NCBI GenBank assembly: GCA_045612825.1
Contig: JAZKZU010000029.1
Location: 1-29,094, forward strand
Length of the DNA: 29,094 nt
Reading direction: 5' to 3'
Source of the DNA: Eubacteriales bacterium
GTDB taxonomy: Bacteria > Bacillota > Clostridia > Oscillospirales > UMGS1783
Position numbers and translations under genes: made by a program. Every line of letters begins with the position of its first letter. Positions within the stretch are counted from its first letter, which is position 1. Of the stretch, positions 20,667 to 24,110 are shown piece by piece. A model generated the notes under the pieces. The model was not told where the DNA came from. It saw only the letters and a list, made by a program, of their open reading frames with translations, and made no database searches.

Positions 20667-20701
20667 CAAAATAAGGAGCAAGCATTACGCTTGCTCCTTT
20701 T
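20662..20701 (+). repeat. Boundary repeat copy 1 (hairpin AAGGAGCAAGC-ATTAC-GCTTGCTCCTT); contains the ABC gene stop codon
   Basis: 39/40 identical to 23469-23508; the hairpin core recurs at 24084-24110. Confidence 0.9.
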
Positions 20702-20702
20702 G

Positions 20703-21512
20703 CTATATCTTCTTCTTCCCACAACTATGGCAAACATTTTCATATCTTGTGTTGATGTTGCCGCAATATATGCAATGCCATTGTCCTCGATAATCTTTTC
20801 TTCTCCCGTCATTTAGCGGATATTTTTTTATTGCTTCCTTATCCGGTATCTCCTTCTGCATCTGATCTATTTCCCTATAAATTTGCTCTAATTCCTCTCT
20901 CTTCTTCTTATGCAATTCTCCAATTGTTAAAAATTCAATATTCCTTTGGGCTCCACAATCAAAACAAAGCATTCTTGTTGCTTCATTTATTTGTCCGCAC
21001 GACTCACAGTGCCAATCAAAGCGAGCATTAACTGCAGGAACAAGTTTATCCTCACCTTGACTAATCATTTCTTCTTGTATCTTTTGATATTCTTCTTCCT
21101 TTTCTGCCTTTTTTTCTTTCAACTGCATATATGCCATTATGACCTCAATGGGAATCTGCAATTGAGAATTATTATCTTCTTGATTTAATAGAGAAATTTC
21201 TCGCACCACATAGTGTTTCCATTGTTCCTTCTCGGAAATGTCTTCAACCATTTTCCCTATCTGCGCCGTTTTTTCCAAAAACTCTTTTAACAGCTCTCTA
21301 TATGTAGTTTCATTCTCATCTTGCTGGTTGTTTATTCTCTCTCTATATAGAAGTTCTACTATCTCATCACAACAAAGTTGATTTCTCAACCATATGCGAT
21401 ATAATGCCTGCAATTTAATAATGTCCTCTCTATCCTCTGGAAAAACAGAGTCTACACTTATGTTTGCCAGCACTCCAATAGCTGTTTCCTTCCACGCATT
21501 TTTTGGTAACAT
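20703..21512 (-). CDS. Hypothetical coiled-coil protein with two RanBP2-type zinc fingers
   Basis: WHCESCGQINEATRMLCFDC and WHCIYCGNINTRYENVCHSC both fit W-x-C-x2-C-x3-N-x6-C-x2-C. GAGGG RBS places the start at 21512. Confidence 0.78.
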   Translation of the reverse strand: MLPKNAWKETAIGVLANISVDSVFPEDREDIIKLQALYRIWLRNQLCCDEIVELLYRERINNQQDENETTYRELLKEFLEKTAQIGKMVEDISEKEQWKHYVVREISLLNQEDNNSQLQIPIEVIMAYMQLKEKKAEKEEEYQKIQEEMISQGEDKLVPAVNARFDWHCESCGQINEATRMLCFDCGAQRNIEFLTIGELHKKKREELEQIYREIDQMQKEIPDKEAIKKYPLNDGRRKDYRGQWHCIYCGNINTRYENVCHSCGKKKI

Positions 21513-21523
21513 GTTTTTCCCTC

Positions 21524-22123
21524 TCATTTCATTATGTTTCGTCCACACTTCTGGCAATATAAACTGTCTGCTGGGATTTTCTCTCCACAAAACCGACAAT
21601 ATATCTCTTCTTTTCTAGTCTGGAGTTGTTCCACTTTTGCTGTTTCATTTTTGAAATATTCTCTTGCCCCTAAATCGCCTTTTATTCGAAGCTTTTTTAC
21701 CTTCCTGCCATTTAGTCTATAAATTGTAAAAATTGTCGCTATTTGTGTCATAATTATGAGAAAAATAAACAGGCCTATCTTATTTTCCTTGTTTTCAATA
21801 AAAACTATAATTCCTACAATAAACACTGTAGTTAGATATCCGCCCGTCATTCCTATGAAAAACTTTAGAATATCGCCTTGTTCCCATGTCTTCCATGTTG
21901 CTCTTATATAAATAAATATTGTCACTAAAAATGATAGCACAGATGAAATTATAAAGTCGCGCCACTCCCCATTTTCATACAAACTTGCTATTCCGCCAAG
22001 AAAGTAAATCACAGAAGCTATTCCGAAAAAAAGAATTACTACTGATATAATATTCCAAAAATTTGCTTTCTCTCGCGCTATTTCTGGGTCTTGATTTGTT
22101 ATGTCATACCATATTCTTCCCAT
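21524..22123 (-). CDS. Membrane protein (about 4 TM) with C-terminal zinc ribbon
   Basis: Four hydrophobic segments; C-terminal YCRFCGEKIPADSLYCQKCG; AAGGAAGG RBS. Confidence 0.8.
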   Translation of the reverse strand: MGRIWYDITNQDPEIAREKANFWNIISVVILFFGIASVIYFLGGIASLYENGEWRDFIISSVLSFLVTIFIYIRATWKTWEQGDILKFFIGMTGGYLTTVFIVGIIVFIENKENKIGLFIFLIIMTQIATIFTIYRLNGRKVKKLRIKGDLGAREYFKNETAKVEQLQTRKEEIYCRFCGEKIPADSLYCQKCGRNIMK

Positions 22124-22125
22124 TA

Positions 22126-23133
22126 TTATCCCTTCCTTATTTCAGTTCCACACTTATTACAGAATCTGCTATCTCCAGGTAATTTTTCTCCGCATTTTCT
22201 ACAGAAAATGCTCTGCTTCTCTTCATTAAGTTGTTTTTCTTTCTCATTTTCTTCTTGTTCATCCTGCTTTGCATTTCTCTTTTTCCCTAAATCCTTGTTG
22301 TGTTCGATTTGAATAATCGCTTGATCACGGTATGTCTCTAGGTCTTCATTTATAATTTCGTATTCTTCTGGGAAAAATGCCCTTATATTGTTTTTCTCTT
22401 TGTATTGTATTGCACCTGTACAGCCATACGCAATATATTTTGCATCAAATAACTCTATTTCCTTTTGCAATATTTTCTTTGATATTTCCTTTTTTTCCTT
22501 GTCGTATGCGAGCCCTGCTTCATCTTTTTTCTTTTTTATTTCTTGAATACGCCGATCCGCTTCCTTTTTTGCTTTAAAGTCGAATATGCCTAATTGTTCT
22601 CGCATATTTAATAATTGATTATATTCTTCTGTTAGTTTCTGAAACAATATATTGTTTTTGCTTTTTTTTAAATCATGCTGTAGTTGATCTATGTCTATAT
22701 TGTTTTTTGTCAATGCCTTTTTTGCCGCCAATACAAGTTCTGGATGTTTGCGTATTTCATTTATATTATCTATTATTTCATCAATGCATACTTCGCTCCA
22801 TGCAAGGGCTTCATCAGAAGAAAAAAAATATTGCACTCTGTGTTTTTTCATGCCATTTTCTTTTTCCCATTTTTCCTTTTGTTTGCACAATGGACAATAC
22901 TCGTAATAACTATCAAAAATCCGCATTGCCTTTATTTGCGTAGGTTGCTTGCAAAAATCTTGTAATTTGTCAATTGTGTTTTTTTGCGCTTTTTCTTCTG
23001 CCTCTCTTTCTGTTCTCCCCACTCCTTTACCTGTAACTTCAACCATCCTAACCATAGGATATTCACAAGAAGAACACGTATATCCAATATATGCTCTTGT
23101 TTTGCTTGTTACCGAATAATATGTGCCTGTCAT
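22126..23133 (-). CDS. Hypothetical protein with N-terminal Cys pairs, coiled coil and C-terminal zinc ribbon
   Basis: CSSC...CPLC near the N-terminus; K/E-rich helical middle; FCRKCGEKLPGDSRFCNKCG at the C-terminus. GGGAGAG RBS places the start at 23133. Confidence 0.8.
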   Translation of the reverse strand: MTGTYYSVTSKTRAYIGYTCSSCEYPMVRMVEVTGKGVGRTEREAEEKAQKNTIDKLQDFCKQPTQIKAMRIFDSYYEYCPLCKQKEKWEKENGMKKHRVQYFFSSDEALAWSEVCIDEIIDNINEIRKHPELVLAAKKALTKNNIDIDQLQHDLKKSKNNILFQKLTEEYNQLLNMREQLGIFDFKAKKEADRRIQEIKKKKDEAGLAYDKEKKEISKKILQKEIELFDAKYIAYGCTGAIQYKEKNNIRAFFPEEYEIINEDLETYRDQAIIQIEHNKDLGKKRNAKQDEQEENEKEKQLNEEKQSIFCRKCGEKLPGDSRFCNKCGTEIRKG

Positions 23134-23169
23134 TATACTCTCTCCCTTTTTTCTCATACAAGCTACTTT

Positions 23170-23256: not shown

Positions 23257-23376
23257 ATGACCATAGGTGAAGCGGTCAGAGATCGGATCTTGGAATTATG
23301 CGATCAACACGATCTTTCGATCAATAAATTATGCACGCTCAGTGGCGTAACACAGTCATACCCACAGAAGGCATAA
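23257..23376 (+). pseudogene. Truncated XRE-family HTH regulator (not in the ORF track)
   Basis: GAGGTG RBS; MTIGEAVRDRILELCDQHDLSINKLCTLSGVTQS matches the small clostridial XRE family. The frame then enters the repeat (YPQKA*) where the recognition helix should continue. Confidence 0.82.
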
Positions 23377-23438
23377 ACGCCAAAGCATACGTTTTTACCA
23401 AAAGTATGCCATCTGTGAGTCATATTAAACCGTGTAGC
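23350..23438 (-). ncRNA. Candidate structured ncRNA, copy A (3' end lost by fusion to the XRE gene)
   Basis: 86/89 identical to copy B; the differences are structure-neutral; lies downstream of a matching promoter. Confidence 0.45.
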
Positions 23439-23444
23439 ATGGTT

Positions 23445-23473
23445 ATTATATCACATTTCTTTTTATTTAGTAA
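23445..23473 (-). promoter_or_regulatory. sigmaA promoter, repeat copy A
   Basis: TTACTA, 17-nt spacer, TATAAT with extended TG. Confidence 0.6.
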
Positions 23474-23508
23474 CAAAAAAAGGAGCAAGCATTACGCTTG
23501 CTCCTTTT
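23469..23508 (+). repeat. Boundary repeat copy 2 (hairpin; also a plausible bidirectional terminator)
   Basis: AGTAACAAAAAAAGGAGCAAGC-ATTAC-GCTTGCTCCTTTT. Confidence 0.9.
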
Positions 23509-23509
23509 T

Positions 23510-23884
23510 TTATCGACACTTGGAACAGGGACGGTACCCCATCTGTTCCAGCTGTTCCACATTATAGCCCCAAAAGAAAGTATCGTCAAAATCCTCGCAC
23601 CCATACGCATGATACCGCTTATCCGATTCGTCTATCAATCCTATACAGTCTTCGTAGAACTGCAACTGTCTTTGCGCTTGCAGTTGATCGGCGAAAATCT
23701 TTATCTTTGATTCGTGTTCCATTTGCCGTTGTGCCTTTTCAAACTGCAAATCTGAGGACAACTCCTTGATCTGTTGTTCTTGTCTTTGGCATACTTGGCT
23801 CCCATATCCTATGGCAACGAATAACAACAAGATCAGGACGACAAGAATACAATCCCACCAACGCCATCCGTGTTTCTTTTTCAT
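23510..23884 (-). CDS. Small membrane-anchored protein with coiled coil and C-terminal His/Cys metal-binding motif (Ada-metal-binding-like)
   Basis: AGGAG RBS with ATG 23884; N-terminal TM segment (WWDCILVVLILLLFVAIG); YHAYGC...GYRPCSKC. Confidence 0.75.
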   Translation of the reverse strand: MKKKHGWRWWDCILVVLILLLFVAIGYGSQVCQRQEQQIKELSSDLQFEKAQRQMEHESKIKIFADQLQAQRQLQFYEDCIGLIDESDKRYHAYGCEDFDDTFFWGYNVEQLEQMGYRPCSKCR

Positions 23885-23897
23885 GCTGTGTGCTCCT

Positions 23898-23929
23898 AAA
23901 TAAAAAGTGTGCAGCCAAAGACTGCACAC
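23898..23929 (-). terminator. Intrinsic terminator ending the candidate ncRNA, just upstream of the RBS of 23510..23884
   Basis: Minus strand GTGTGCAGTC-ttt-GGCTGCACAC followed by TTTTTATTT. Confidence 0.75.
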
Positions 23930-24045
23930 CGAAAAATGCAGCCCGGCTCCGTTGCTACACAGTCATACCCACAGAAGGCATAATCGCCAAAGCATACATT
24001 TTTACCAAAAGTATGCCATCTGTGAGTCATATTAAACTGTGTAGC
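23900..24045 (-). ncRNA. Candidate structured ncRNA or attenuator leader, intact copy B (~146 nt; 92-nt rod at 24045-23954)
   Basis: Has its own promoter, with predicted +1 at the first base of a 10-bp terminal stem GCTACACAGT/ACTGTGTAGC. Inner stems ACTCACAGA/TCTGTGGGT and GGCATA/TATGCC; own terminator; duplicated in the window. Confidence 0.55.
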
Positions 24046-24051
24046 GTGATT

Positions 24052-24080
24052 ATTATATCACATTTCTTTTTATTTAGCAA
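24052..24080 (-). promoter_or_regulatory. sigmaA promoter, repeat copy B
   Basis: TTGCTA (24080-24075), 17-nt spacer, TATAAT (24057-24052) with extended TG. Confidence 0.7.
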
Positions 24081-24083
24081 CAA

Positions 24084-24110
24084 AAAGAGCAAGCATTACG
24101 CTTGCTCTTT
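24084..24110 (+). repeat. Boundary repeat copy 3 (hairpin AAAGAGCAAGC-ATTAC-GCTTGCTCTTT); the MFS stop codon lies in its loop
   Basis: Same core and loop as copies 1 and 2, with a compensatory G-C to A-T change in both arms. Confidence 0.88.

Follow-up and report, generated by a model that had tools for sequence, protein, structure and literature searches.

An uncatalogued family of probable attenuator-type leader RNAs in Clostridia, with one full and one truncated copy at a single locus

The window (the whole 29,094-nt stretch of DNA analysed here) contains on its minus strand, in this order, an MFS transporter gene, a hairpin (T1), a promoter, a rod-shaped RNA domain, a linker with a segment termed X, a terminator, a ribosome binding site (RBS) and a gene encoding a 124-aa protein. 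The MFS transporter gene (25379-24096, minus strand) ends inside T1 (AAAGAGCAAGCGUAAUGCUUGCUCUUU, 24084-24110), a perfect hairpin which carries the TAA codon of the MFS gene in its loop and was scored as terminator-like on both strands. T1 is the terminator of the MFS gene and an insulator of the RNA unit, and is included in the segment that has been duplicated at this locus. The σ70-type promoter (24052-24080) has a −35 sequence TTGCTA (24080-24075), a 17-nt spacer and an extended −10 sequence TGaTATAAT (24060-24052, reading TGATATAAT in this copy), representing 10/12 matches to the consensus together with the TG. Transcription is predicted to start at 24047-24045, with the G of the terminal stem located at 24045 and the rod beginning six bases past the −10. 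Behind the terminator, an AGGAG RBS (23897-23893) precedes the ATG (23884) of the 124-aa gene (23510-23897 including the RBS), the product of which has an N-terminal membrane helix and a C-terminal YH..C...PC..C motif, and matched no Pfam family.

The 5′ domain of this RNA (copy 1) is a sensor-like rod (23954-24045) consisting of the helices P1, P2 and P3, as found by folding, with a covariance model and from covariation within the family. The outermost helix P1 is formed by GCUACACAGU (24045-24036) and ACUGUGUAGC (23963-23954), and is separated by an internal loop (UUAAUAUG, 24035-24028) from P2, formed by ACUCACAGA (24027-24019) and UCUGUGGGU (23975-23967). At the apex, segment 1 (GGCAUAC, 24017-24011) is followed by a loop (UUUUGGUAAAAAU, 24010-23998), segment 2 (GUAUGC, 23997-23992), a bulge (23991-23983) and a distal UAUGCC (23982-23977). 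Segment 1 can pair either with the proximal GUAUGC or with the distal UAUGCC, in agreement with the bistable apex suggested by the original prediction. A linker (AACGGAGCCG, 23953-23944) connects P1 to segment X (GGCUGCAUUUUU, 23943-23932), which is complementary to the A run plus segment 2 and also to the 5′ half of the terminator. This intrinsic terminator (23902-23930) comprises strand Y (GGUGUGCAGUC, 23930-23920), a UUU loop, strand Z (GGCUGCACAC, 23916-23907) and a run of five U residues (23906-23902). The 153-nt stretch folds with −62.5 kcal/mol (z = −7.1 compared with shuffled sequences). The promoter, P1, P2, apex and terminator were all present at the places where they had been noted, and together the promoter, fold and terminator support the idea of a self-contained unit producing a structured RNA of ~146 nt. 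An AUG in loop L1 of the window copy opens a frame of 49 codons, but a coding role was rejected since neither this AUG nor the frame is conserved and variation in P2 is compensatory. The relative G002 has the same order of MFS gene, hairpin, promoter, RNA and an ortholog of the 124-aa gene, and control of the gene for this membrane protein by copy 1 would be the best explanation of the arrangement.

The RNA had been described as present twice, and a second copy was indeed found on the minus strand (23350-23511) with the three differences listed at the time, namely an A to G change giving a G-U pair in P1, a U to C change past the A run and an A to U change in the bulge, but its truncated 5′ domain means that it is not a second working unit. 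Copy 2 consists of a hairpin (T1′, 23511-23475), a promoter with a −35 sequence TTACTA (23473-23468) that is weaker than that of copy 1 and a −10 sequence TGaTATAAT (23453-23445), and the 5′ domain only (23438-23350). The repeat between the two copies is 133 nt long with 95% identity, and copy 2 scored 69.7 bits with the covariance model. It stops at 23350, within the 3′ strand of P1 and 3 nt short of the end of that helix, and linker, X and terminator are all missing, so that hairpin, promoter and 5′ domain have been duplicated and not the entire RNA. Downstream of copy 2 there was no convincing terminator, and the only hairpin seen was a weak one of 5 bp that lacks a U run.

A truncated XRE-type helix-turn-helix ORF of 39 aa on the plus strand (23257-23376, ATG at 23257) is convergent with copy 2, tail to tail. 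Its homology to full-length genes ends at residue 34, which is the repeat border at 23350, and in relatives the homologous frames are 83-106 aa long, with alignments starting at residue 1. Three zinc-ribbon protein genes (20703-23157, minus strand) lie behind copy 2 and are oriented like it, and have a promoter-like site of their own at 23215-23187. The core of the T1 hairpin (GAGCAAGCGUAAUGCUUGCUC) is present in three copies (20676-20696, 23475-23511 and 24084-24110), which border modules of 0.6 kb and 2.8 kb between the convergent MFS and ABC/FtsX genes, and the GC content of the 2.8-kb module is 31-38%, compared with 50-60% in the flanks. As G002 contains the first module alone, and its T1′ directly adjoins the convergent ABC/FtsX gene, the 2.8-kb segment that reaches from copy 2 to the third T1 copy can be considered an added module. 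Copy 2 is best read as a truncated remnant of a rearrangement, located where an acquired AT-rich module is joined, rather than as a working second switch, and at most supplies a promoter and 5′ hairpin to the zinc-ribbon genes.

BLASTN detected homologues of the RNA in many families of the order, and nine of these, with the structure set by hand, were used for the covariance model R1. This model matched 49/151 genomes and 35/96 genera of the order, 31/150 genomes of the class, and one of ~147 genomes from the rest of the phylum, that one also belonging to the same class. The metagenome-assembled genome (MAG) from which the window derives (G000, 1.33 Mb) contained seven matches (contig C29 twice, C238, C260, C121, C80 and C49), and up to 13 copies were present per genome. 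A strict sequence pattern matched >120 contigs, mostly gut or rumen MAGs, with contig titles including Ruminococcaceae, Acutalibacteraceae, Oscillospiraceae, Faecousia, Congzhengia and the isolate Pseudoflavonifractor sp. MSJ-30. The member in the cultured Pseudoflavonifractor sp. MSJ-30 is located on NZ_JAHLPU010000059.1 (L193:813-891). One member is located on a 3.8-kb contig (L210, NZ_JAZQIJ010000163.1) binned as Methanobrevibacter sp., which is most likely a binning error since the family is otherwise restricted to Clostridia.

The original prediction had not recognised the signature of SRP, 6S, T-box, tRNA or the common riboswitches, and this was upheld in the searches of Rfam 15, where the whole window gave no match at the gathering score. 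At the same score, tRNAs were the only matches at 20 loci with divergent members, and in E-value searches with the window and further loci (34 loci across all Rfam searches) no family recurred on the element. No published description was found using conserved strings, the topic, or those parts of the supplements of the human-microbiome structured-RNA catalogue that were covered. The homologues with covarying stems, the absence of which was to count against the original prediction, were found in large numbers by BLASTN, with the covariance model and in an alignment of 107 members, and the RNA is thus part of a large family of the class Clostridia, mostly from Oscillospirales-type gut and rumen genomes, which is missing from Rfam 15.

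Conservation of the structure was assessed in a model-guided alignment of the 107 members, in which 96% of cells represented standard pairs and 35 of the 36 pairs had changed on both sides, in counts that lean towards the model to which the alignment was fitted. The covariation score was 0.737 for these members, compared with 0.214 for shuffled sequences and 0.03-0.07 for slid partners, and compensatory pairs in P1, P3 and the terminator were already visible in a MAFFT-only alignment of 22 sequences. Compensatory changes were present in 8/9 pairs of the terminator (helix 10), and many G-U pairs are compatible with RNA from the minus strand only. A −10 sequence with at least 5/6 matches was found in 95/107 members, with an extended TG in 80, and in 78 it occupied a single fixed register with P1, which places the transcript start at the foot of P1. 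Unpaired conserved motifs included UUAAUAU and GCAaCAa past P1, GGUAAAAA in the P3 loop and U5-C before the terminator, and ~25 unpaired positions were at least 80% conserved where aligned. The sequence of P1 (GC-N-ACACA/UGUGU-N-GC, model positions 3-12 and 84-93) is kept apart from one freely covarying pair, and this conservation exceeds the needs of a plain helix.

No alternative co-varying partner was found for P1. Pairing of its 3′ strand with the 3′ half of the terminator was rejected, as the excess was weak (z = −3.5) and the variable P1 position did not co-vary, and there was no signal for pairing of loop L1 with bulge J. A K-turn in L1 was likewise rejected because the bases needed are not conserved. 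A T-box-like UGGN loop was also dismissed, with the base 5′ of the GG being U, A, C or G instead of a conserved U, and the T-box tests gave neither an Rfam T-box match nor a specifier domain.

The multiple copies per genome, together with a duplication in the window at the border of an acquired 2.8-kb module framed by copies of one hairpin, would also suit a mobile element or cassette, in which the RNA could serve as a site of recombination, as a guide or bridge RNA, or as an antitoxin of type III. The order of promoter, RNA, terminator and gene is indeed like that of type III toxin-antitoxin loci, and members were present on 11 IMG/VR contigs representing about four distinct loci, where they precede genes for a lipoprotein, a sigma-factor fusion and small proteins, although a stricter pattern had no match in IMG/VR. 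This explanation is nevertheless highly improbable, and has already been largely refuted by context, as the units examined have no adjoining recombinase, transposase, reverse transcriptase or ToxN-like gene and no short tandem repeats, orthologous loci are stable across the genus, BLAST gave no match in phage or plasmid records, and the G-U pairs, promoter and terminator denote an RNA of one strand. The neighbours in the window are the MFS transporter, the small membrane protein, the zinc-ribbon proteins and the ABC/FtsX protein, and an IS110 bridge RNA or IS200/605 omega RNA was rejected since no recombinase or TnpB/IscB gene adjoins the element in the window or at the other loci. Of the roles first put forward, the guide-like one therefore lacks a recombinase or nuclease partner, and the antitoxin-like one is contradicted by the absence of short tandem repeats and by downstream genes that are unrelated to each other and not ToxN-like.

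The family contains four mutually exclusive helices that co-vary, which are P3 (segments 1:2), a long-range helix 2:X as putative anti-antiterminator, an antiterminator X:Y and the terminator Y:Z. Helix 2:X is formed by the A run plus segment 2 with X, and consists of 10-15 bp, frequently with one bulge. Compensatory examples are AAAAAUACAU/AUGUAUUUUU, AAAAAGUG/GCGCUUUUU and AAAAAUGCAU/AUGCAUUUUU, and in a gapless comparison the five positions past A5:U5 were paired in 92, 80, 83, 74 and 62% of members, compared with 66, 66, 69, 60 and 47% after shuffling, the A5 alignment being fitted to the model and its 2:X pair counts leaning towards it. The first pair past A5:U5 was CG in 31, UG in 30, UA in 24 and GC in 12 members. 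Similarly, X:Y changes from AGCUGCG/CGCAGCU to AGCUACG/CGUAGCU, with GAGGGA/UCCCUC as a further version.

When the partners from each sequence were compared with those from all other members, a test which does not fully remove relatedness, the mean duplex energy of own and cross pairs was −11.2 and −6.5 kcal/mol for 1:2, −14.3 and −9.5 kcal/mol for 2:X, −11.1 and −8.7 kcal/mol for X:Y, and −16.6 and −11.5 kcal/mol for Y:Z, and for each of the four helices the observed own mean was reached in 0/2000 permutations. Pairings used as negative controls gave no signal. Folding of the RNA up to the terminator loop, when Z is absent, gave P1 in 104/105 and X:Y in 104/105 members, and the nested minimum free energy fold of the full-length RNA contained the terminator in 65 and the antiterminator in 40 members. 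This split suggests that terminator and antiterminator are nearly balanced. With P1 and P2 intact, 2:X is a pseudoknot that lies beyond nested folding, and its energetics are estimates.

An intrinsic terminator is thus located between the promoter and the RBS of the first gene, and the antiterminator that shares one of its strands has been maintained in evolution. Since the four mutually exclusive helices co-vary, we consider it probable that the element is a cis-acting transcription-attenuation leader of a Clostridia-wide family absent from Rfam 15. In the mechanism proposed, transcription would start at the foot of P1, and the rod of P1, P2 and P3 would fold first. Segment X would then emerge and pair with Y, and this antiterminator would prevent nucleation of Y:Z, allowing RNA polymerase to read into the gene. 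Alternatively, the A run of the P3 loop and segment 2 may capture X, which would leave Y free to form the terminator and stop transcription ~20 nt before the RBS. Segment 1 and X would be rivals for segment 2, with the distal bulge partner (UAUGCC) also involved in some members, including that of the window, and the apex of the rod would be the decision point and the place where a signal acts. We infer that 2:X corresponds to the OFF state and 1:2 together with X:Y to the ON state, and that a trans factor, which may be a small molecule, an ion, a protein or the kinetics of transcription, biases the apex.

In most members, an RBS and an ORF are located within ~15-30 nt downstream of the U run, and ~10% of the units have no ORF behind them. 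The original prediction allowed for either an sRNA or a regulatory leader, and it is the leader that is favoured by the RBS and gene past the U run and by the co-varying antiterminator and anti-antiterminator, with the evidence mostly speaking against the sRNA. A stand-alone trans-acting sRNA of ~146 nt, pairing with targets or titrating a protein with only incidental read-through into the gene, would be consistent with the unit having its own promoter and a strong terminator, with the conserved single-stranded motifs UUAAUAU and GGUAAAAA, with the units that lack a downstream ORF and with tandem complete units in G079, G292, G432, G024 and G467. It is unlikely, as a co-varying antiterminator that competes with the terminator would be superfluous in a pure sRNA, the RBS of a gene directly follows the U run in most members, and leaders are conserved together with orthologous genes.

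The tandem arrays are head-to-tail and consist of two or three complete units, each with its own promoter (L095, G079:C186:197-1732; L014, G292:C55; L120, G432:C14; L091, G024:C8; L013, G079:C1; and also in G467). In G079:C1, where a convergent gene lies opposite the array, no ORF follows.

The 84 downstream proteins were mutually unrelated, and no single ligand or pathway emerged from the association with genes. Among them were BspA-type LRR surface proteins, N-terminal zinc-ribbon proteins, a conserved AMP-binding enzyme (AMP-ligase), SPFH proteins, peptidases, a sigma factor and recurrent microprotein families without Pfam models, and 30/84 were complete proteins of ≤100 aa. An N-terminal hydrophobic stretch was present in 46-55% of the cargo proteins of at least 100 aa, compared with 14-16% of crude background ORFs from the source genome, and the cargo is thus enriched for putative exported or membrane proteins. 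At least two CxxC motifs were found in 12% of the cargo and in 1-6% of the background, which is only suggestive of zinc binding. The leader stays with its gene in some cases, as the same 145-aa membrane protein was found with it in G000, G001, G002 and G005, and is stable across the genus.

Several of the small proteins recur. The commonest single cargo is an acidic microprotein of 42-65 aa starting with M-x-D-Y-K/E-K-L/M-Y-F-x-L-F-N, for which there was no Pfam model, and its ORF usually starts 60-90 nt past the terminator (L099:706-831, L101:301-429, L120:463-597, L130:693-872, L117:680-874, L030:1259-1387 and others). Other recurrent cargoes were a family of 77-96 aa ending in ...IFEKYKI and cysteine-rich proteins of 70-85 aa. 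The recurrent microproteins were rejected as a universal regulator, since they are essentially absent from G000. On predicted viral contigs (L276:11563-13224, L269 and L272), the leader was located before a protein of 533-554 aa with an N-terminal ECF-type sigma-70 domain and a long C-terminal part of no known kind.

The DNA downstream of the leaders was on average 5.5 points lower in GC than the upstream DNA (42/53 loci, Wilcoxon p ~1e-6), and the cargo therefore looks accessory or acquired. The expectation that the RNA travels with variable cargo genes was thus confirmed by downstream genes that are unrelated and AT-rich. The same lower GC content, and cargo that is unrelated and often without known function, may also be expected from a constitutive damper or insulator acting without a signal, in which the mRNA would be protected by the 5′ hairpin and leakage through the terminator would fix a low expression of acquired AT-rich genes, and the nearly isoenergetic antiterminator and terminator would allow for partial termination unaided. 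This alternative is unlikely, as the three extra helices (1:2, 2:X and X:Y) and ~25 unpaired positions kept throughout the class would be excessive for a fixed leak.

A structured domain with conserved unpaired nucleotides is also a property of riboswitches, and attenuation by the leader could tentatively be ascribed to a riboswitch of a new class, or to some other RNA that senses a global signal directly, acting via a four-helix relay on a scattered regulon. Candidates for such a signal would be a nucleotide messenger other than c-di-GMP, an ion or an envelope-derived metabolite. GGDEF domains were not found in G000, nor in G002, G006, G001 and G003, four 93-98% complete genomes of the genus that also carry the RNA, and c-di-GMP is therefore unlikely to be the effector, although GGDEF domains were present in four more distant carriers. 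The c-di-AMP cyclase was universal among the genomes checked, and hence uninformative. If such a sensor were to operate, the switched regulon, to a large extent acquired horizontally, would comprise surface proteins together with cell-wall enzymes and microproteins that are uncharacterised.

Two read-length contigs from public runs cover parts of the unit, neither of which shows transcript ends. The first, a 151-nt contig from a bovine gut metatranscriptome, derives from a related G002-like strain and spans 23878-24009, thus including the terminator and the first codons, and may represent carry-over of DNA. The second, also 151 nt and with a library type that is not labelled, covers 23905-24055.

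Few bacteria of the gut and rumen are as abundant, or as hard to work with, as the Oscillospirales-type Clostridia, and to our knowledge almost nothing is known about the regulation of their accessory genes. As one RNA design is present in about one-third of the genomes sampled from the order, the genes behind it would form a regulon under a shared signal. Identification of the effector would make the function of dozens of small proteins annotated as hypothetical testable. Among natural examples of co-transcriptional switches with several layers, the family would also be an unusually clear one, with four co-varying rival helices and a near-isoenergetic antiterminator and terminator.

The element belongs to an uncatalogued family of attenuator-type leader RNAs, which shares individual features with several known systems. 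The order of promoter, structured RNA, terminator and protein gene is also that of the ToxIN and CptIN loci, but the family is without the tandem repeats of 34-36 nt and the ToxN/AbiQ-type toxin, and its downstream proteins are mutually unrelated. The c-di-GMP-I, c-di-GMP-II and c-di-AMP (ydaO) riboswitches likewise have many copies per genome in Clostridia, occur in tandem, and precede genes for surface proteins, cell-wall enzymes and proteins of no known function, but the family did not match their Rfam models. In the preQ1-I, SAM-II/V, ZTP and fluoride riboswitches of the OFF type, a loop of the 5′ domain also pairs just upstream of the terminator and favours termination, as such pairing would in the family, and a further likeness is the helix of an A run with a U run at the core. 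In contrast to these pseudoknot riboswitches, the aptamer-like part of the family is a long rod with two asymmetric loops, the genes are unrelated, as many as 13 copies occur in one genome and the promoter keeps a fixed register. Finally, among the terminator/antiterminator/anti-antiterminator leaders of Firmicutes, the S-box/SAM-I leaders and the PyrR-dependent pyr leaders of B. subtilis also lie between promoter and gene. In these, too, an intrinsic terminator immediately precedes the RBS, an antiterminator uses the 5′ half of the terminator, and an upstream helix sequesters the antiterminator strand. The family matched neither the sequence nor the structure of the SAM-I, PyrR-binding-site and T-box models of Rfam, and differs from the S-box and pyr leaders in that its regulon is not a pathway, in having one extra layer (1:2 versus 2:X), and in that the terminator and the U5 tract preceding it are conserved in sequence.
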